DNA of 64,000 nt from contig CAZEJU010000001.1 of the NCBI GenBank assembly GCA_964512695.1, positions 7,803-71,802 on the forward strand. Direction: 5' to 3'. Shown here piece by piece: positions 3,565-58,920 of this stretch. The notes beneath the pieces are model-generated. The model was not told the origin of the DNA. It was given only the letters and a program-made list of their open reading frames with translations, and did not search any database. The DNA is from an uncultured Gammaproteobacteria bacterium. Its GTDB lineage: Bacteria; Patescibacteriota; Microgenomatia; Levybacterales; UBA12049. Made by a program: the position numbers and the translations under genes. Each line of letters begins with the position of its first letter. Positions within the stretch are counted from its first letter, which is position 1.

Positions 3565-5414
3565 TGGAAAAGTTTATTGTAAACAAATGCCAGTCGTTCT
3601 CTTCTGGTACGCTGATAATGAAGTTCATCAACAGGAACGTAAATATATTTCGTTAATGGACAGTTAGCATCATCCATATGTTTATGTGATTCATTAATTT
3701 GTTTGAGAACGCTTTTTAAGGCCTGCAGCGTCGTAGGATAGAAGTTTTTTGCACCTATTACTTCATAAAGACCAGTTTTTTTGAAAATCTCGACTACTTG
3801 TGACTTTACTGTGGAGAAGAATATTTTCTTTCTTGTAACACGAAGAGTTTCTATAAAACCCGCTAGCAATTCTTCACCAGTTGCATCTATTTCGTTAATA
3901 CCGTTCGCAGAAAAAATAATATGCGTTACATGAGGATGTTGTGATAAATATCTAATAATTTCGTTTTCAAAAAAAGTTGCATTTGCGAAAAAAAGAGGAG
4001 CATCGAGACGTACAACAGCTATGTTTTCACATTGATCTAGATTATATAACTTATAATCATGTAAAAAACCATCTTTATACATAGATAAGAAAGCCACCTT
4101 AGGGCGTGTACTTCGAAAAACAAAATGTCCTATCGAAAAAACAATTCCAAGTAACAGTCCTTTCTCTAAGTCGGGCGCGAAGTATAACGTACCGAAGAAA
4201 GTTAATATTGCTGCAATACCATCATATAAACTAACACTAATAATAGGTTTAATTTTAGAAAAATCTATTAACGTTGAAACAGAGATGATGATAATCGCAG
4301 CGAGAACAACTTTTGGTAAATAGTAGAGTAAAGGAGTAAAAAACAGTAATGTGATAAGCACCATAAAAGAGGTAAAAAAACTAGAAAGCCATGTTTTAGC
4401 TCCCGCCTGATAATTAAGTGCTGTTCGAGAAAAAGAGCCTGAAACAGGATAACTAAGGCTAAATGAGCCTACGGCGTTCGCTATGCCTTGACCTATTAGT
4501 TCTTTATTCGGATCTAGCCGCTCTTTGGTCTTTAGAGCAATTGCTTGTGCTACAGAAACAGATTCTGTAAACCCTATAAGGGACATCGTAATAACAGGTA
4601 TAATTAAATGTCCTAGCACACCAGAATCAAAACGGGGAATGCCAATTATAGGTAAACCGTTTGGAATTGTCCCAACCAGAGCTACTGGATAGTTTAAAAA
4701 TTGTACAATGACAGAAAGCACGACAACAGTTATAAGCACATAAGGTATGTTCCGATTAATTTTTCGTAATATAAGCATCCAAGCGACAGCTATGCAACCT
4801 AGTATAAATGTCTGCCAATGAATTGCTGTTATAGCCTTTTGGAATAAAGCTATTATAGTTTGATAATGATGTTCCTGGTTAGGAACACTAATACCGAAAA
4901 AAGCTGATAGCTGTGTAGTAGCGATTATTAATGCCGCAGCATTCGTAAACGCATAAATAACAGGATGTGAAAGAAAACTAACAAGTCCCCCTAATTTCAA
5001 TGTACCAAGAAGAATTTGGAATAATCCTAATAAACAAGCTAAGAGAACAATATTTGAAATGTATTCGTTCGATCCGAGGGGACTAATGGGCGAAACAGCC
5101 GATAACGCTAAGAGAGATAAAACTGCGACAGGACCTGTTGCCAGCTGAGCGCTTGAACCAAATAATGCAGCTAAAAAAGGAGGTAATAAAGCTGCGTACA
5201 GTCCGTAATGTGGGGGCAAACCTGCCAGCTGAGCATACGCTAATGATTGGGGGATCAATACTAGACCCACTGTTATACCTGCAATAATATCTGCACGTAA
5301 AGTTACCTTATGGAGAAAAGGCCGGTAGACTTTAGCTAAAAATGAAGTGTTTCCTGGAAGTTGTTTCATTCTTTTCCTTATTACTAGCTTATCACAAGAT
5401 TTTTTCTCGCTCAA
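3561..5414 (-). CDS. SulP-family anion (sulfate/bicarbonate) permease with C-terminal STAS domain
   Basis: Polytopic membrane protein with SulP-like segments (AYAQLAGLPPHYGLYAALLPPFLAALFGSS) and a STAS-like C-terminus. Confidence 0.8.
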   Translation of the reverse strand: MSEKKSCDKLVIRKRMKQLPGNTSFLAKVYRPFLHKVTLRADIIAGITVGLVLIPQSLAYAQLAGLPPHYGLYAALLPPFLAALFGSSAQLATGPVAVLSLLALSAVSPISPLGSNEYISNIVLLACLLGLFQILLGTLKLGGLVSFLSHPVIYAFTNAAALIIATTQLSAFFGISVPNQEHHYQTIIALFQKAITAIHWQTFILGCIAVAWMLILRKINRNIPYVLITVVVLSVIVQFLNYPVALVGTIPNGLPIIGIPRFDSGVLGHLIIPVITMSLIGFTESVSVAQAIALKTKERLDPNKELIGQGIANAVGSFSLSYPVSGSFSRTALNYQAGAKTWLSSFFTSFMVLITLLFFTPLLYYLPKVVLAAIIIISVSTLIDFSKIKPIISVSLYDGIAAILTFFGTLYFAPDLEKGLLLGIVFSIGHFVFRSTRPKVAFLSMYKDGFLHDYKLYNLDQCENIAVVRLDAPLFFANATFFENEIIRYLSQHPHVTHIIFSANGINEIDATGEELLAGFIETLRVTRKKIFFSTVKSQVVEIFKKTGLYEVIGAKNFYPTTLQALKSVLKQINESHKHMDDANCPLTKYIYVPVDELHYQRTRRERLAFVYNKLFH

Positions 5415-5481
5415 TGATATAAAAAATTATGGTTCAAGGAAAATTTTAATGAAGTTTTATTATGTTTGAGGAAGCCTCTAC

Positions 5482-24794: not shown

Positions 24795-25107
24795 TTGACA
24801 AGCTCAGGCTGATAAGGTAAAGTATGGAAAGAATCAAGAGTGATGGGGAGACCCCAGTCTGATCTTCCTTTTCGCCTTAGTAGATTTCTACTTCGGCTTA
24901 AAGAGCGATCTTACCGGGGCGGGAGTTTTGGCTTCATGATCCATCCGGCAACCCTTCGGTAAGTTCAAACAATGCTTGAACAACGAGCAGGGTGCCAAAC
25001 CCAACCCAAGAGATGTGCTACCGAGTACATCTTCGTAAAGGAGGATTTGATCCTGAGACAATCGAAGGATAAACTATGTATTACCTCTCTTTACGAGAGG
25101 TTTTTTT
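24795..25107 (+). promoter_or_regulatory. Promoter plus S-box (SAM-I)-like riboswitch with extra insert, antiterminator and terminator
   Basis: TTGACA(24795)-17-TAAAGT. S-box-like strings AUCAAGAG (24833), GGGAGUUUUGGCUUCAUGAUCCAUCCGGCAACC (24921..53), GGUGCCAAACCC (24991), AAGAGAUG (25008). UUUGGC (24927) is complementary to GCCAAA (24994), like the SAM-I pseudoknot. Terminator ACCUCUC-uuuac-GAGAGGU + U7 (25083..25107). GUAAAGGAGG (25035) can pair with CCUCUCUUUAC as an antiterminator. Confidence 0.5.
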
Positions 25108-28528: not shown

Positions 28529-28675
28529 TTGACAATTTATAATTGATCTGGTAAGATTATAAGACAAATATGCAACATACGTTTAATTCTATTATTGTCG
28601 TCCTTCTCGTTACCCATTAATTGGGCGGAGGACTCGTGTTAAAAAACGTACCCGCTCAAAGAAGCGGGTTTTTTT
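28529..28675 (+). promoter_or_regulatory. Promoter plus Ile/Val/Leu-codon leader-peptide attenuator
   Basis: TTGACA(28529)-17-TAAGAT. Leader ORF 28570..28620 = MQHTFNSIIVVLLVTH (7 consecutive I/V/L codons). UUGGGCGG (28621) pairs with CCGCUCAA (28652) as antiterminator, versus terminator ACCCGCU-caaaga-AGCGGGU + U7 (28650..28675). Confidence 0.75.
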
Positions 28676-28696
28676 ATGTTTTAAAAGGAGAAATAT

Positions 28697-30590: not shown

Positions 30591-31676
30591 ATGATTCAAC
30601 AAGAAAGGCTTCTAAAAACATTCTTCGATCTTGTTTCAATCGATAGTCCTACAGGTGAAGAAGAACGCATTCGTAACGAACTCTCAAATCGTTTGAAAAA
30701 ACTTGGCGCTGAAACAGTGGAAAAAGATACCTATGGTAACCTCATAGCGAAATTCCATGGTGAAGGTGAACCGCTCATGATTAACTGCCATATGGACACT
30801 GTAGAGCCCGGTAGAGGCATAGTACCAATTATGAAAGGTGATAGAGTAGAAACCGACGGGAAGACAATTCTAGCGGGTGATGCAAAGGCAGGTTTAGCGA
30901 TTATCCTCGAAGCCTTAACTTCACTAAAAGAAGAAAATAAAAAACATGTACCTATCGAAATCGTCTTTACTGTAGAGGAGGAAACTGGACTTTATGGAGC
31001 TGTTAACCTCGACTATTCAAAAGTCTCCGCAAAAAAAGGATTTGTTTTTGATGGTTCAAAAGATCCTTGTACCTTAACCACATCAGCACCGGGATATTAT
31101 AGAGTCGATGTTACAATCATAGGAAGAGCGGCTCATGCGGGAGCCGAACCTGAAAAAGGTATTTCAGCTATTAAAATCGCTTCTGATATTATTACGAAGC
31201 TCGAGGTAGGCAGAATTGATGAAGAAACTACGGCAAACGTCGGTATTATAGAAGGCGGAAGCGCCCGGAATGCAGTACCAGAAAAAGCACATTTTAAGGC
31301 AGAAATTCGAAGTAGAAAGCTAGAAAAGCTTGAAAAACATGCAGGTCATTTCCAAGAAGTTTTTGAGGAAGCGATGAAGAAACATCCTGAAGCGAAAATA
31401 GAGATAGACATGCATTTAGAATTTAATCCATATATTTTCGATGAAAACCATCATGTTATTCAGCTTGCGAGTAAAGCGTTAAGCGAACTAGGACAAACAC
31501 CGAAACTTGCACCTTCGAATGGAGGATCCGATGTCAATATTTTTATTTCACACGATATAGAAACAGTGGCTGTAGGAATTGGCGATTATAATGCTCATAC
31601 AACCCGCGAATACGTCGTCATATCTGAAATAGTGTTAGGAGCTAGACTCTGCGAAAAACTCCTTGAGGCGAAGTAA
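30591..31676 (+). CDS. M20-family metallopeptidase (peptidase T / tripeptidase-like)
   Basis: SPTGEE, CHMDTVEPG, LAGDAKAGLA, EEETGLYGA, RAAHAGAEPEKGISA: M20 metal-ligand motifs. 34 nt after paralogue B, so likely the same operon. Confidence 0.75.
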   Translation: MIQQERLLKTFFDLVSIDSPTGEEERIRNELSNRLKKLGAETVEKDTYGNLIAKFHGEGEPLMINCHMDTVEPGRGIVPIMKGDRVETDGKTILAGDAKAGLAIILEALTSLKEENKKHVPIEIVFTVEEETGLYGAVNLDYSKVSAKKGFVFDGSKDPCTLTTSAPGYYRVDVTIIGRAAHAGAEPEKGISAIKIASDIITKLEVGRIDEETTANVGIIEGGSARNAVPEKAHFKAEIRSRKLEKLEKHAGHFQEVFEEAMKKHPEAKIEIDMHLEFNPYIFDENHHVIQLASKALSELGQTPKLAPSNGGSDVNIFISHDIETVAVGIGDYNAHTTREYVVISEIVLGARLCEKLLEAK

Positions 31677-31759
31677 ATTGGTATATTGCTAAACTGCTAA
31701 TTGTTACGTGAGAGTAACCATACAACAATACCCATATCAATAAATTTTCGCTACAAAAA

Positions 31760-32107
31760 TTGACACGTCATTAACCTCATGGTAGAATTACTATAACATA
31801 CGAATAACAGCGTTGATCCAGTATGGATGGGACTGGGGATTCTCCTTCATTAAAGTTACGCAAGGAGAGCGCTGGGTCTAATCAACCCCGGAGGCGAAAC
31901 CGTAAAAAGATCAGCAACATGTGTCATAGCTGCAGATAAGCACTGATTAAAAGCTGATTCTCGCTGATATAGAGCATGTCATGAATGAGAAGTCCTCCCA
32001 CGCCAAAGCTCCGGAGGATAAAACAAGGTGGCACCGTCCTTAAATAAACGTGGGACCCTTGTAAATAACTACAAAGTAATTTTGTGGTTGTTTACAAGGG
32101 TTTTTTT
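31760..32107 (+). promoter_or_regulatory. Promoter plus T-box-like leader (antiterminator bulge UGGC; specifier not resolved)
   Basis: TTGACA(31760)-17-TAGAAT. ACAAGG-UGGCACC-GUCC..GGAC-CCUUGU (32023..32062) is a T-box-type antiterminator with a 7-nt bulge. Its 3' strand is shared with a 14-bp terminator CCCUUGUAAAUAAC/GUUGUUUACAAGGG + U7 (32056..32107). Confidence 0.6.
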
Positions 32108-32108
32108 A

Positions 32109-33269
32109 ATGGTAAAAACTATGAAAGAAGGAGTTATTATACAAGTTGATCCGAGAATACCAGAGCCATATATAACATATATCCGGCAACGAAATGGGAA
32201 TGTCGGCAGAGATATAGCAGATCACCTTGGCCTACCCTATGTAGGAGACAGTCAGGGAGTACAACGTGCAGCTGATTATTATCCTGTACTTGCCAGAACT
32301 GTCACCAGAGAACATGCAAGAGTATTAGGTGCAGAAAATACAAGAGATTTCTATGGTCTTGCAGTTGAAGATTTAAATGTTGTGGGTAAATCTATACTCC
32401 ATCCTTCTATAAGCAGAAGACATCCTTTATTTCATAGAGAACAATTCGCACGAAAAGTCTTAGGTCAAACCCTTCCTGGTATAACCGGTTTCTCTAAAGA
32501 AGATTTATTAGCAGGGTATGAAAATGGTTACGCTGGATCACTGGATCATGCTTTAGATTACGAGCAGTATGGATTACGTGTTAAACTTCCAAATGAATCC
32601 GACGGCGTAGGACAATTTACTATACAAAGCAAGGATGATCTGGTTACTCTTCTAGAAGCTATTGAGGATAAAGATATCCACGAACAAGGACTGGTTCTGG
32701 AAGCTGATGTACAGAAACCTGAGACTATATCAGTCGGATTCGCGAGAATCGGTGATGAACAATTAAGTTTCATAGCCCAACAAAAAGATGCACGTGTGTT
32801 AGTAGATCATAAGGGCAAAACAATAGAGCAGAATAGATATGGTGGGGCATACGTCGTTGTGGCAAAAGGCCCTTTACAGTTACTATGCCAAGCCACGGAA
32901 GCAACTTCGCGTGAGAGATCTGCTGTAGAAAAAACACTGGCGTTTCATGAAGCCTATCAACGCATCTATGATCCTTTAGCTTCGAGATTAAGTTTCGATG
33001 TCATTTTCGGAGAAGGGAAAAACGGTCTCCCACTTGCAGGAATAAGTGACATTACTGGTAGGCTAGGTGGAACGTGTCCAGCACTCATGCAAGCTGCTGA
33101 AGAGTTCAGGAAAAACCCTTCTATTCAAATGGTAGGAACAGAAGTATCTCTTAATTATACTCCCCATGTACGATTTCCCTATGAAGATGAAGCTAAGGTG
33201 TATGTAGACCACCCAACACTCAGACTTACAGCAAGAGTAAACTCAAAACACAGAAGACTCGCAGCATAG
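32109..33269 (+). CDS. ATP-grasp-like protein (386 aa from the ATG at 32109)
   Basis: GLRVKLPNESDGVGQFTIQSKDDLVTLLE.. and ..GLVLEADVQKPETISVGFARIG.. fit ATP-grasp central-domain strands. I rejected the ORF-track start (32028) because it overlaps the leader terminator. Confidence 0.4.
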   Translation: MVKTMKEGVIIQVDPRIPEPYITYIRQRNGNVGRDIADHLGLPYVGDSQGVQRAADYYPVLARTVTREHARVLGAENTRDFYGLAVEDLNVVGKSILHPSISRRHPLFHREQFARKVLGQTLPGITGFSKEDLLAGYENGYAGSLDHALDYEQYGLRVKLPNESDGVGQFTIQSKDDLVTLLEAIEDKDIHEQGLVLEADVQKPETISVGFARIGDEQLSFIAQQKDARVLVDHKGKTIEQNRYGGAYVVVAKGPLQLLCQATEATSRERSAVEKTLAFHEAYQRIYDPLASRLSFDVIFGEGKNGLPLAGISDITGRLGGTCPALMQAAEEFRKNPSIQMVGTEVSLNYTPHVRFPYEDEAKVYVDHPTLRLTARVNSKHRRLAA

Positions 33270-33278
33270 ACATGAATC

Positions 33279-33422
33279 TTGACATTACACATGGGCTATC
33301 CTATAATCATTTATATGATACGACAAGCAGTAAATTTCTTTTTCTTTTTTACCCCACTCGCGGGGAGGTAATTTCGTGATCACACGAAATACTCTATACC
33401 CCGCATAAGGCGGGGTTTTTTT
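33279..33422 (+). promoter_or_regulatory. Consensus promoter plus Phe-codon leader-peptide attenuator
   Basis: TTGACA(33279)-17-TATAAT(33302). Leader ORF 33315..33371 = MIRQAVNFFFFFTPLAGR, with its ATG only 7 nt after the -10 (leaderless). CCCC/GGGG (33352/33362) 1:2 hairpin. GCGGGG (33360) can pair with CCCCGC (33399), versus terminator CCCCGC-auaag-GCGGGG + U7 (33399..33422). Confidence 0.8.
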
Positions 33423-33435
33423 ATGGAGGAATTCT

Positions 33436-55810: not shown

Positions 55811-56331
55811 TTGACGTACTATAGGGAATATAGTATCATTATTTAACAATTTATAAAGGCTATGACGAAGTCAAAGTAGTTTTCGCAGAGTGACACCAGA
55901 GAGAAGACGTCGCTGCAAGATCTTCCGTATCTTCGAAAATGAATTACGCTTCTGAGCTGTATGCCGAATCCGTTAACCGATGGATAGGCAGAACCGGGTT
56001 CGCACCGTGATAGCGAAAGAATGTGTCGCAGAAGAAGTGGAGCATTCGAAAATAAGCGTTTATCGTATTACTTCGAATCCCTTCATAAGGGATTTTTTAT
56101 TGCTAAGATAAGCGAAACCGAGGTGGTACCACGGAGAAAAATTAAAAGGTAAAAGGTAAAAATTGTATAAGGAAAGATAGTAGTAATTTTACTTTGGACT
56201 TTTGACTTTACACTTTTAACTTTCTTGTTCCGTCCTTGAGAATCATTATTGTTCGAGTGAAGTGAGAGTTATTTTTTACACATAAACTTCTCATTTTGTT
56301 CGAAGAATAGTATTTCTGGGACGGTTTTTTT
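55811..56331 (+). promoter_or_regulatory. Promoter plus T-box leader, probable Tyr (UAC) specifier, with unusually large inserts
   Basis: TTGACG(55811)-17-TATCAT. Stem I base GCUAUGACGAAG/CUUCUGAGC with AGUA...GAA flank and UAC+G at 55945..48. AGAGA box. F-box CCGUUA (55970). T-box GAGGUGGUACCACGG (56119..34). CGAGG-UGGUACC-ACGG pairs with CCGU-CCUUG (56230..38). Terminator arm CCGUCC/GGGACGG + U7 (56230..56331). Confidence 0.6.
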
Positions 56332-57711
56332 ATGAAAGACAATGTACTATCAACTGAGCAAGAACAAGAAAACGAGTTAGAGATGCATGAAGCTTTCCAC
56401 AAGCAAGTACATGCAGTTCTAGAATCTGAAGACAGATTCAGAAAAGCTGAAAGAACAACGAGAATTGGCCTTGAAGCCGAATATAGTGTCATAAATGCAA
56501 CGTGTGATCAAGTAGACCAAACAGTCAGAGATCAAATTATTGAAGACAATAGAGACTTCGCTACCCAAGAGTTAGGGGCAGCACAAATTGAATTACGAAC
56601 TGACCCTATTATCCTTTCTGATGGAGGAATCTGGCAGGTATTTGACCAGATGGCATCTAGAGATGACGCTATAAGGAATGCGGCACATAGACGGGGTGCG
56701 CGTATACTGAGAAGCGGCACAAACCCCTTAGTCGATCTTCATGACATACTAAGAACTGATAAACCAAAATACCGGCAAGTACCTGATTTCCATAATAGAA
56801 AGAGAAAGTTTGGCACAGACACAACAATTGGCAATGGAAAAAGAGTTGATGTAGGAGACGCTGCTGTAGTTGCACTCTTAAACTCTTTGCAGACGAATAT
56901 AGAAGCTGTAGATTTCGCAGATGCCACAGATAAATTAAACAGATCGTTAATGATTGGACCGTATGTTACTGCAGTCAGTTCCGGGGCACGGTATATCGCT
57001 CATCAAGACGCAGGCTTAGCTGATTTACGAATTCTTGCTTGGGAAACGAGTCATGACACGAGAACTGACTCAGAGAGAACACTAGGTGAAAAAACCAGAG
57101 TCGGACTGCCAGCACGATACTATACTGATGTAAAGGATTACTTTACACAAGTGGGATCATATCCATTTATTCTCCATAATCCAGAGGCAGCACTTCAAAT
57201 AGGAATCGGTCTTCATTGGAGAGATACACGGTTAAAAGTAATAGGGGACAGCCTTGTGGTAGAATTCCGTCCCATATCTGCACAGCCAACATCTGCAGAA
57301 AATGTAGCTTCTGCTTTATTTTATACAGGAAGACTACATTGGTCTCAAGCCACAAACGAACCATTGCTGCCGTTTGATAAAGTAGAACATAATAGAAAAC
57401 AAGCACTACACGAAGGCCCTAGAGGGACTATGTACTATACAGAAGACAATAATGTACAGCGATATAAAGCTCCAGAAATCATAAAACTAGAATTAGCGAG
57501 AGCAAAACATGGATTAGAGATGATAGGTTGTCACCCAAAAGATATTGAACCATTCTTTTCAGTTCTAGAAAAAAATCTCGATGAAGGTACACCTGCTGAA
57601 CGGATGCACAATGTCGTATCACGTCTCACAGAAAATGTTTCTGAGAAAGATAAAAAAGAGGCTACACATGATGCTCTTATCACAGCCATTCAAGTCTTAC
57701 AATTCGTATGA
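56332..57711 (+). CDS. GCS2-family carboxylate-amine ligase-like protein, paralogue E (459 aa, the most canonical copy)
   Basis: RIGLEAEYSVIN, GLHWRDTRLKVIGDSLVVEFRPISAQPTSAENVASALFYTG matches the GCS2/YbdK signature closely. Confidence 0.7.
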   Translation: MKDNVLSTEQEQENELEMHEAFHKQVHAVLESEDRFRKAERTTRIGLEAEYSVINATCDQVDQTVRDQIIEDNRDFATQELGAAQIELRTDPIILSDGGIWQVFDQMASRDDAIRNAAHRRGARILRSGTNPLVDLHDILRTDKPKYRQVPDFHNRKRKFGTDTTIGNGKRVDVGDAAVVALLNSLQTNIEAVDFADATDKLNRSLMIGPYVTAVSSGARYIAHQDAGLADLRILAWETSHDTRTDSERTLGEKTRVGLPARYYTDVKDYFTQVGSYPFILHNPEAALQIGIGLHWRDTRLKVIGDSLVVEFRPISAQPTSAENVASALFYTGRLHWSQATNEPLLPFDKVEHNRKQALHEGPRGTMYYTEDNNVQRYKAPEIIKLELARAKHGLEMIGCHPKDIEPFFSVLEKNLDEGTPAERMHNVVSRLTENVSEKDKKEATHDALITAIQVLQFV

Positions 57712-57723
57712 TATACTTTCGAT

Positions 57724-58920
57724 ATGGATAAAATAGAAGAAGTACTCACCAGAGGAGTTGCAAACATTATTCCAGGAAAACAAGTCCTAAAGGACGTTTT
57801 AACTTCAGGTAGAAAAATAAATATCTATCTCGGTATCGATCCTACAGCACCGAGAATCCATCTCGGTCATGCAGTTTCTATTCGAAAACTACAAAACTTC
57901 GTCGACTTAGGTCATAAAGTAACATTTCTTATTGGTAATTTTACTTCGCTTATCGGCGATACCTCTGATAAGGATTCAGAAAGGCCCATTCTCACAGAAA
58001 AAGAAATAGAACAAAACTTCCAGACATATAAAGAACAAGCAGAGAAGTTACTTGATTTTTCAAAAGTACACATAGTACGTAACAGAGATTGGTTAAATAC
58101 ATTAACATTTGCCGAAATTGTACGATTAACACAAAACTTTTCAGTTAATGACTTTATCAGTAGAGAGTTAATTAGAAAACGTTTAGATGAAGGCAAACGT
58201 GTACGACTCGATGAGGTACTCTATCCAATTATGCAGGGATATGACAGTTATTTTATGGATACAGATCTACAGATAGGGGGTACTGATCAAACGTTTAATA
58301 TGCAAGCTGGGAGAACATTACAAAAAGTGATGAGAAATAAAGAATCTTTTGTCTTATCTACTGTTTTCCTAACAGGAACAGATGGTCGAAAAATGAGTAA
58401 ATCGTGGGGGAATGCAATCTGGATAAGCGATTCAGCTGAAGATATGTTTGCGAAAGTAATGGCTGTCAGAGATGACCTTCTCCTAGAATATTTCTTATTA
58501 GCTACAAATGTCCCCTTACACCAGGTCGAGGCTATAAAAGAACGGTTACAATCCGGTGCAAATCCTATGGAAATTAAAAAAGAACTCGCTTTTATAATTG
58601 TCGAGGAATTACATGATAAAACTGCCGCGGTAGCAGCTCAAGAAAAATTCGAAAAAACTGTACAGAACAGAGAATTACCCGAAGAGATACCTGTGGTCAT
58701 TATTCCGGAAACACTACAATCAGAAATTGCTATTGCAGACGTTTTAAGCACACTGGGATTAGTAGAAAGTAAATCAGAAGCCAAACGTTTAGTAGATCAA
58801 GGTGGTGTGGAAATAGATGGACAAAAAGTAACGAATACAAATGAAATAATTAGTGTAAAAGATGATATGATAATAAAAGTAGGAAAGAGAAGAATTGTTA
58901 AACTGACAACGACGAAATAA
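57724..58920 (+). CDS. tyrS: Tyrosyl-tRNA synthetase
   Basis: GIDPTAPRIHLGH (HIGH), KMSKS, and a C-terminal S4-like domain (..SKSEAKRLVDQGGVEIDGQKV..). Starts 12 nt after paralogue E. Confidence 0.85.
   Translation: MDKIEEVLTRGVANIIPGKQVLKDVLTSGRKINIYLGIDPTAPRIHLGHAVSIRKLQNFVDLGHKVTFLIGNFTSLIGDTSDKDSERPILTEKEIEQNFQTYKEQAEKLLDFSKVHIVRNRDWLNTLTFAEIVRLTQNFSVNDFISRELIRKRLDEGKRVRLDEVLYPIMQGYDSYFMDTDLQIGGTDQTFNMQAGRTLQKVMRNKESFVLSTVFLTGTDGRKMSKSWGNAIWISDSAEDMFAKVMAVRDDLLLEYFLLATNVPLHQVEAIKERLQSGANPMEIKKELAFIIVEELHDKTAAVAAQEKFEKTVQNRELPEEIPVVIIPETLQSEIAIADVLSTLGLVESKSEAKRLVDQGGVEIDGQKVTNTNEIISVKDDMIIKVGKRRIVKLTTTK

Follow-up and report, generated by a model that had tools for sequence, protein, structure and literature searches.

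Layout of the leader upstream of the DUF3182 gene

The 64,000-nucleotide (nt) stretch of DNA analysed here, which we call the window, carries a gene for a protein of the Pfam family DUF3182 at 32121..33269 (+) (E = 6e-48). The subject of this study is the leader in front of that gene (31760-32108, ~315 nt long), which we consider as a candidate T-box riboswitch. It is headed by a promoter at 31760..31788 (+), made up of a -35 element TTGACA (31760-65), a 17-nt spacer and an extended -10 element TG-n-TAGAAT (31783-88). This promoter matches 11 of the 12 consensus positions and has the upstream TG, and the transcript probably starts near 31795. The closest relative, locus L001 (related loci are cited by such numbers throughout), has TTGACT...TAAAAT at the equivalent place relative to the leader. 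The fold of the entire leader is more stable than that of shuffled sequences (z = -4.4).

The antiterminator, at 32023..32062 (+), begins ~230 nt past the promoter. The first-pass annotation of this DNA had recognised here the geometry of a T-box antiterminator, two helices flanking a 7-nt bulge of the UGGN type, and folding reproduces it. The minimum free energy (MFE) structure of the isolated segment (-10.8 kcal/mol) consists of a 6-base-pair (bp) helix A1 (ACAAGG 32023-28 with CCUUGU 32057-62), the bulge UGGCACC (32029-35) and a 5-bp helix A2 (32036-40/32052-56, including GUCC 32036-39 and GGAC 32053-56). The 3′ strand of this structure doubles as the 5′ arm of an intrinsic terminator at 32055..32108 (+) that ends in a run of seven U residues (U7, 32102-08), as the annotation had also seen; however, the stem of the hairpin (32055-32101) comprises 20-22 bp and not the 14 bp given there. 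The hairpin has a free energy of -30.2 kcal/mol (z = -8.7), and none of 200 shuffled sequences was equally stable. Because nucleotides 32055-32062 are common to both structures, antiterminator and terminator are mutually exclusive, with the terminator as the default. U7 is separated from the start codon of DUF3182 by 13 nt, and the terminator hairpin contains no ribosome-binding site.

Upstream of the antiterminator lies a candidate Stem III (about 31992-32019, within 31987..32022 (+)), which has the purines GAGAAG (31987-92) on its 5′ side and an A-rich linker (UAAAA) on its 3′ side. The hairpin is present in both the MFE and the centroid folds, and its place agrees with the Rfam alignment of a related locus, L125. 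A motif of this form, RRRNG-Stem III-AA, is on record for T-boxes (PMC7778990).

A reduced decoding module in the 5′ half

The 5′ half of the leader is, judged from sequence comparison and folding, a T-box decoding module whose Stem I consists of no more than its lowest helix. At the base of Stem I, the 5′ strand of a kink-turn (K-turn) occupies 31809..31816 (+), with the C-stem nucleotides A31809-G-C31811, a bulge GUU (31812-14), and G31815 and A31816; it agrees with the Rfam T-box consensus aaGCgaUGA (cf. L125). The truncated Stem I itself, 31817..31837 (+), is a single helix (31817-31822/31832-31837) closed by the apical loop AUGGAUGGG (31823-31831), which holds the putative specifier UGG (Trp) at U31828 G31829 G31830, followed by the purine G31831. 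UGG occurs again at 31824-26, which offers the same codon in another register. The 3′ G-A of the K-turn follows at 31838..31839 (+), where L001 and most relatives read GGAGC, the consensus being ugGAGc. In the window a 31-nt insertion, 31840..31870 (+), comes next, and the 3′ strand of the C-stem, GCU at 31871..31873 (+), pairs across it with 31809-31811. The K-turn of the window thus reads GC-GUU-GA ... GA-(insertion)-GCU, which is consensus-like, and its kinked geometry is predicted from the sequence.

A short Stem II hairpin at 31874..31888 (+) (GGGU, loop CUAAUCA, ACCC) leads into a predicted Stem IIA/B pseudoknot at 31889..31915 (+). Stem IIA pairs CGG 31889-91 with CCG 31900-02, Stem IIB pairs G31894 C31895 with G31914 C31915, and the F-box CCGUAA, 31900-05 (+), lies inside; Rfam places this segment of L125 on the IIA/F-box positions of its model. 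The Stem II loops of relatives are of the AAAAGUA or CUAAAUA type, and many of them retain AAAGUA, but the GAA half of an S-turn is absent. An extra hairpin, 31917..31979 (+), with the base helix ACAUG 31917-21/CAUGU 31975-79, separates the pseudoknot of the window from Stem III. The family described below keeps the same order: the K-turn GC-NNN-GA comes first, then 4-7 bp of helix closed by an apical loop with 6-11 nt, for which A-A-G-G-U-U-G-G-A-A is typical; GGAGC and a hairpin of 4 bp lead to CGG-N8-CCG with UAAAAG behind it, and a short stretch then pairs back into the N8 loop.

Conservation in homologous leaders

Thirty homologues of the DUF3182 protein were found among 5.8 billion proteins, and their contigs were used for comparison of the leaders. 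Eight DUF3182 leaders, those of L001, L003, L007, L008, L010, L011, L012 and the window, share one architecture. The L001 protein is 80% identical to that of the window, and L003 belongs to a genome labelled Candidatus Woesebacteria, its leader being recognised by the covariance model R1 described below. These protein-anchored leaders have a UGG(C/U)AC(C/A) bulge between two helices, followed by a terminator. Helix A1 occurs as ACAAGG/CCUUGU, GCAAGG/CCUUGC, AUAGGG/CCCUUGU and ACAGGG/CCCUUGU, and helix A2 as GUCC/GGAC, GUCUG/CAGAC, GCCU/AGGC and CCCA/UGGG. Between the window and L001 the outermost A1 pair changes from A:U to G:C and the corresponding base in the 3′ arm of the terminator is altered alongside, a three-way compensation. 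The first-pass annotation had named conservation of the bulge and helices in homologous leaders as a check on its proposal; both are kept, and their recurrence with compensatory changes makes them more than a product of chance. At the distant DUF3182 loci L002, L004, L005 and L006 there is no leader of this build.

A scan of metagenomes with the antiterminator pattern returned at least 120 further loci, nearly all of which have a hairpin and a U-run downstream. Fourteen compact members were aligned with MAFFT without regard to structure. In their alignment 95.9% of the cells pair and double changes are seen in 12 of the 18 pairs, whereas in controls with the partners slid by 1-3 columns only 16-46% of the cells pair. 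The covariance model built from this alignment, R1, from which the window was left out, matches the window over its full length (31801-31925) with 54.3 bits (E ~5e-12). In an alignment of the 41 best R1 matches, 16 of 17 pairs show compensatory changes, including one of the two pseudoknot pairs, and the covariation score is 0.65 compared with 0.19 for shuffles.

The changes are spread over the whole module. Covariation was found in 5/5 pairs of the Stem I helix and 4/4 pairs of the Stem II hairpin, and the C-stem pairs of the K-turn also covary (AU/UA, GC/CG). The middle pair of Stem IIA is GC in 27 members, AU in 13 and UA in one (CGG/CCG versus CAG/CUG). One pseudoknot pair varies as GC (31), AU (7) and CG (1); the second is CG in 39 members and unpaired in 2, and is never double-changed. 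Every one of the 41 members has UGG followed by a purine in the apical loop. On a side-by-side reading of the loci, the base helix of the extra hairpin covaries as well (ACAUG/CAUGU, ACGUG/CACGU, ACAUU/AAUGU, ACGAG/CUCGU).

The insertion and the integrity of the switch

The 31-nt insertion at 31840-31870 is lineage-specific. It is missing from L001, where the pairwise alignment shows a clean 31-nt gap with identical flanking nucleotides, and in the computed fold it appears as an 8-bp hairpin (31840-47/31862-69). It separates the K-turn GA from its C-stem, and a K-turn has been reported as essential in T-boxes with a short Stem I (PMC7583486). One could therefore suppose that the insertion, together with the enlarged spacer hairpin, broke tRNA binding, and that the leader is a decaying or inactive T-box, by now no more than a constitutive terminator or an ordinary 5′ untranslated region. 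This possibility would fit the score of the window with R1, which is the lowest among close relatives (54 bits, compared with 86 bits for L001), and the lack of an Rfam match in the window. We nevertheless consider it unlikely. The inserted nucleotides form a hairpin of their own with flanks identical to those of L001, and unrelated hairpins occupy the same site in six other members (L003, L007, L010, L012, L036 and L054), suggesting that a three-way junction is tolerated here. No damage is seen in the specifier loop, pseudoknot, bulge, promoter or terminator, and selection would act against a permanent terminator ahead of a gene that is itself intact and conserved.

Why the Rfam model does not report the leader

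The Rfam T-box model, RF00230, has a gathering threshold of 93 bits. On relatives of the leader it gives sub-threshold matches, with 45.4 bits for L125 (E = 4e-9), 41.8 for L109, 36.2 for L040 and 34.7 for L045, the E-values ranging from 4e-9 to 3e-4. The alignment of L125 retains the K-turn, lower Stem I, the Stem II AAGUA, IIA/F-box, Stem III and the T-box sequence, while upper Stem I is shortened by 74 model positions, in whose place stand 8 nt that contain UGG. The deleted part includes the distal Stem I platform, the AG bulge and distal loop whose interdigitated T-loops stack on the tRNA elbow, and no such sequence is present in the leader. Accepted 'ultrashort' members also lack this platform (PMC7583486), so that it marks the long class and not the T-box family as such. 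The 74-position deletion, together with the insertions at 31840-70 and 31917-79, accounts for the invisibility of the window to Rfam.

Several observations weigh against reading the leader as a T-box for tRNA-Trp. RF00230 has no match in the window at its gathering threshold, nor at E <= 10 on 31600-32250, where the sole Rfam matches are chance ones of the terminator hairpin with small RNA and microRNA families. The annotation had doubted its ability to fold Stem I, and RF00230 indeed fails to place Stem I in the window. The MFE structure of the isolated segment favours another small hairpin over the window Stem I, and R1 misaligns this stem as well, a misplacement caused by the 31-nt insertion, so that the pairwise alignment with L001 was used instead; the fold of Stem I in the window therefore rests on homology to L001 and the family, and the L001 hairpin is identical. 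In the metagenome scan the pattern fixed A1 and the bulge, so no covariation can be measured there in those loci. The alignment of 41 matches was fitted to R1, which inflates its proportion of paired cells (94.2%) but not its variety of pair types. The elbow platform has been held essential for transcriptional T-boxes, in which tRNA must be captured fast (PMC7583486). Finally, tRNA-Trp is not among the 8 tRNA genes of the window, and the discriminator of the host is thus unread.

Identity of the cognate tRNA

The genes behind the leaders point to Trp. Downstream features could be identified for 32 members, and in 26 of them these are Trp-related, namely trpS-like, trpE/G/D/CF/B or tRNA-Trp. 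They were counted by similarity to annotated references, of which trpS (326 bits, L010), trpE, trpD and trpB were confirmed by NCBIfam, and the trpG and trpC/F references were labelled by their position in the trp operon of L029 and not by a scan. DUF3182 stands behind the leader in 9 loci, 4 of which are among these 26. In L003, L008, L010 and L012, DUF3182 precedes AstE/AspA-like, trpS-like ligase and tRNA-binding-domain genes on the same strand, and the ligase gene of L010 is the confirmed trpS. The apical loop follows the same rule elsewhere: CCY plus a purine precedes proS (L057, L070), CGC plus A precedes argG (L037), and the loop GUCGCGA precedes argB and argF (L079).

The bulge offers an independent reading of the tRNA. 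From its fourth base, C, the annotation had predicted a tRNA with the discriminator G73 and had listed Trp among the candidates. Thirteen tRNA-Trp genes were found near the leaders, of which that of L009 duplicates that of L008, leaving 12 linked cases. The combination of bulge base and discriminator is C/G73 in 4 of these, U/A73 in 5 and a U/G73 wobble in 3, and the mismatch C/A73 does not occur; all four tRNA-Trp genes linked to UGGC-bearing relatives thus have G73, as the annotation had reasoned. A U opposite G73 is found in 46% of the Trp T-boxes in TBDB (bioRxiv 10.1101/2020.06.17.157016). The UGGC bulge of the window accordingly predicts a tRNA-Trp with G73.

A T-box for a different tRNA would have to read Thr through ACC (31899-31901) or Gly through GGA/GGU in the apical loop. 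The former was the suggestion of the annotation, which had tentatively proposed GAA-ACC-G as a Thr specifier at 31886-31892 and had noted its conflict with G73. The motif, which actually lies at 31896-31902, does resemble the canonical 'GAA-codon-purine' specifier loop, and GG(A/U) stands ahead of UGG in most apical loops. However, Stem IIA has ACC/ACU as its 3′ strand and covaries as a helix, CUG appearing exactly where the partner strand CGG becomes CAG, and Rfam puts the ACC segment on the F-box. The GGN is not invariant, loop variants being GCAUUGG, GAUUGG and UUUUGG. No thrS, glyQS or other Thr or Gly gene stands behind any member, compared with the 26 that have Trp genes or tRNA-Trp. tRNA-Gly has U73 and tRNA-Thr has A73 or U73, neither of which fits UGGC. 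We give very little credence to such a tRNA; with the specifier taken as the UGG in the apical loop of the truncated Stem I, the conflict between Thr and G73 is gone.

Equally improbable in our view is that terminator and antiterminator answer to a signal other than tRNA (for example a leader peptide, a small molecule or a TRAP-like protein) and that the T-box-like bulge arose by convergence. This idea draws on the presence of predicted leader-peptide attenuators nearby (33315-33423 and 28570-28676) and of a 38-codon open reading frame (ORF) within the leader, from 31824. Trp codons are lacking in this frame, and the 31-nt difference, which is not a multiple of 3, destroys it in L001. Leader-peptide attenuation of the 31760-32108 leader was therefore rejected, its internal ORF being devoid of Trp codons and not conserved. 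The K-turn, IIA/B pseudoknot, F-box, Stem III and UGGNACC are in combination specific to T-boxes, the Rfam T-box model recognises these elements in relatives, and the bulge base tracks the tRNA-Trp discriminator.

Genes for tRNA-Trp also occur directly downstream of these T-boxes. In L008 one (3925-3999) lies between the terminator of the Trp T-box and the protein genes, starting about 10 nt past the U-run, and tRNA-Trp is found likewise behind the T-box in L016, L024, L045, L069, L071, L075, L076, L105, L109, L111 and L112, mostly no more than about 100 nt past it. If no promoter lies in between, the riboswitch would control the gene of its own ligand. The related loci L014-L133 include ultrashort-Stem-I T-boxes of the terminator type for other amino acids (the proS, argG, argB and argF leaders named above, and for instance L014 and L038), some of which have the apical loop AAUUUUUACA, probably for Tyr, ahead of uncharacterised genes; T-boxes with a long Stem I occur among these loci too.

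Proposed mechanism

Taken together, our results suggest that the leader is very probably a transcription-attenuating T-box that senses the charging of tRNA-Trp and controls DUF3182, and from this we infer tRNA binding, readthrough and a role of DUF3182 in aiding Trp supply. Transcription would begin at the 31760-88 promoter, and the first ~120 nt would fold into a compact decoding module of K-turn, 6-bp Stem I, Stem II hairpin and IIA/B pseudoknot with the F-box. The anticodon CCA of tRNA-Trp would pair with the apical UGG, and, like the 'ultrashort'-Stem-I T-boxes of Actinobacteria, the leader would offer the tRNA elbow no platform and would depend on K-turn, Stem II and pseudoknot for decoding (PMC7583486), whereas its output, termination, would be that of Firmicute T-boxes. 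Further downstream, past two spacer hairpins and Stem III, the UGGC bulge would pair with the 3′ end (G73-C-C-A) of uncharged tRNA-Trp. This pairing would stabilise the weak antiterminator (-10.8 kcal/mol) over the terminator (-30.2 kcal/mol) and allow readthrough into DUF3182, whereas a charged tRNA would be unable to stack at the bulge and the terminator would form. It is an idea only that the extra hairpins buy time for tRNA capture, and the U-rich tract that follows Stem III in many relatives could cause a pause.

Comparison with known T-boxes

The canonical transcriptional T-boxes described by RF00230, such as those of B. subtilis tyrS and of trpS and the trp operon in Firmicutes, resemble the leader in the K-turn, the codon followed by a purine, the IIA/B pseudoknot with the F-box, Stem III with flanking purines, the 7-nt UGGN bulge and the competing intrinsic terminator, and are likewise off by default. 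Many canonical Trp T-boxes also have U opposite G73, as do several members of the compact class. In contrast, the canonical T-boxes possess an upper Stem I, with a specifier loop in a side bulge that carries an S-turn, an AG bulge and a distal loop, which the leader class lacks, its codon being in the apical loop. Their Stem II is a long helix with an S-turn whereas that of the leader is a 4-bp hairpin, and the leader class has extra hairpins between pseudoknot and Stem III. RF00230 gives the class 0-45 bits against its cut-off of 93.

Closer in build are the translational ileS 'ultrashort' T-boxes of Actinobacteria (Sherwood et al. 2015; structures from M. tuberculosis and N. farcinica; review PMC7583486). 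They share with the leader a K-turn and short helix, an apical specifier, the lack of an elbow contact and a Stem II plus IIA/B module adjoining Stem I. However, the ileS type works by sequestration of the Shine-Dalgarno sequence, responds to Ile, occurs in Actinobacteria and has a long Stem II with an S-turn, while the leader has a terminator (20-22 bp) with U7, a Trp specifier and a minimal Stem II, is found in Patescibacteria-like genomes, and has relatives for Pro, Arg and probably Tyr.

T-boxes with a long Stem I from the same lineage (55853-56072 in the window, and 1971-2258 in L011 before GCS2) have the same F-box region as the leader, an extra hairpin, a Stem III with a U-rich stretch behind it, and ligase-like targets next to aminoacyl-tRNA synthetase (aaRS) genes. 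The extra hairpin, with conserved GUGUC...GGAGC flanks, is seen in the window at 31917-31979 and 56020-56070 and in L011 at about 2110-2140; both the short- and the long-Stem-I T-boxes of the lineage have it, and the standard T-box model does not. The long forms differ from the leader in having AGAGA, a distal loop GGUGNAAG and a specifier, UAC, in a side bulge, and for this reason Rfam finds them (58 and 112 bits). The long T-box of the window has a canonical Stem I, scores 58.2 bits with Rfam (E = 4e-12, under the 93-bit cut-off), has the probable specifier UAC (Tyr) and the bulge UGGU, and precedes a GCS2-like gene (56332-57711) and tyrS (57724-58920). From its T-box sequence at 56122 to the U-run at 56326-32 there are ~190 nt, a gap that implies a large insertion in the expression platform.

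Distribution and significance

The T-box is a kind of switch that is already known, and it is the combination, as it appears from alignment and folding, of an apical-loop Stem I, a minimal Stem II and an intrinsic terminator that is unusual. We found no description of this combination, nor of a T-box in the Candidate Phyla Radiation (CPR, Patescibacteria), in the literature, the coverage of which was incomplete and does not prove novelty. The short-Stem-I model of TBDB was applied only to Actinobacteria and to truncated class I matches (PMC7778990). We place the class in Patescibacteria-like genomes because of sequence neighbours of the tyrosyl-tRNA synthetase that carry the names Patescibacteria, Saccharimonadales or Microgenomates (62-69% identity), and because of the Woesebacteria locus L003. 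It is quite possible, though we would not go so far as to call it probable, that Patescibacteria harbour a large uncatalogued class of ultrashort-Stem-I terminator T-boxes that serves as a main amino-acid sensor of their reduced genomes. If so, the class would control aaRS, trp and tRNA-Trp genes as well as DUF3182 ATP-grasp, GCS2-like, AstE/AspA-like and M20 enzymes, and these enzymes would belong to an uncharacterised route of amino-acid acquisition.

Such a class would be useful in several respects. At least 120 natural T-boxes of the terminator type that lack an elbow platform would test the idea that kinetic control of transcription needs the elbow contact, and a minimal decoding module of ~95 nt would be on offer for structural work. 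Since the standard covariance model misses the class, the annotation of T-box regulons in CPR genomes is likely to be incomplete, a gap that a model made for this class, such as R1, would close. The specifier, moreover, could give a functional handle on proteins that lack an assigned function. DUF3182, which would be turned on by uncharged tRNA-Trp and often shares its leader with a tryptophanyl-tRNA-ligase gene in the same row, probably acts in the supply or use of Trp, and its neighbours would stand under Tyr, Phe and branched-chain signals.

The regulated gene and its neighbourhood

The gene downstream of the leader had been annotated as ATP-grasp-like, which agrees with the fold of its product. 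The AlphaFold model of DUF3182 has a pLDDT (predicted local distance difference test) of 92.5, and its top 50 PDB matches are exclusively ATP-grasp ligases, with ArgX/LysX, D-Ala-D-Ala ligase, PurK and biotin carboxylase among them. A sequence search of PDB gave a marginal match to PurK (E = 0.07), so that the assignment is made on the comparison of folds. DUF3182 is thus predicted to be an enzyme of ATP-grasp fold, as has already been proposed by Burroughs et al. (PMC4431377). The remark of the annotation that ATP-grasp genes lie outside the classical T-box regulon seems to us a fair one.

Full control by the T-box probably extends to DUF3182 alone, since a further promoter and attenuator begin at 33279. 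This element, 33279-33435, lies between DUF3182 and a gene for a 566-amino-acid (aa) protein and begins with a perfect promoter, TTGACA-17-TATAAT (12/12). An ORF encoding MIRQAVNFFFFFTPLAGR and a stop, with its ATG at 33315, has five consecutive Phe codons and is followed by overlapping CCCC/GCGGGG/CCCCGC segments and by a terminator (33398-33416, with U7) just before the ribosome-binding site. Its layout is that of a classic Phe leader-peptide attenuator, which we predict it to be. It is kept in L001, where the peptide reads MIRHSVNFFFFFTPPAGR before the stop, and in L007, where Rfam reports Phe_leader with 39 bits (E = 0.004). The 566-aa protein has no match in Pfam, NCBIfam or PDB and no clear similarity to a 619-aa GCS2-like protein encoded elsewhere in the window.

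The gene for this 619-aa protein and that for a PepT-like M20 peptidase are preceded by a promoter at 28529-57. It is followed by an ORF rich in Ile, Val and Leu codons (28570-28620, encoding MQHTFNSIIVVLLVTH and a stop) and by a terminator (28650-28669, with U7), and the whole element, 28529-28696, looks like a branched-chain amino-acid leader-peptide attenuator. At 24795-25107 a leader of ~280 nt, with a promoter (24795-24823) and a terminator (25083-25101, with U7), stands before the gene for a protein of 584 aa that matches no family. This leader shows no Rfam match and no obvious leader peptide, and it may be another regulatory RNA.

Outside the window, the single 10-kb contig of L011 carries three successive T-boxes, one for Tyr (UAC) before GCS2 (1971-2258), one for Trp before DUF3182 (3654-3960) and one probably for Phe (UUC) before a second GCS2-like gene (5144-5461), with an M20 peptidase gene upstream of the row. 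This arrangement suggests paralogous ligase-like enzymes that are each tied to one aromatic amino acid. In two of the other DUF3182 loci, both on CPR-like contigs, there are matches to group I introns near tRNA genes, at 1032-1297 in L003 (52 bits) and at 3196-3379 in L008 (72 bits).

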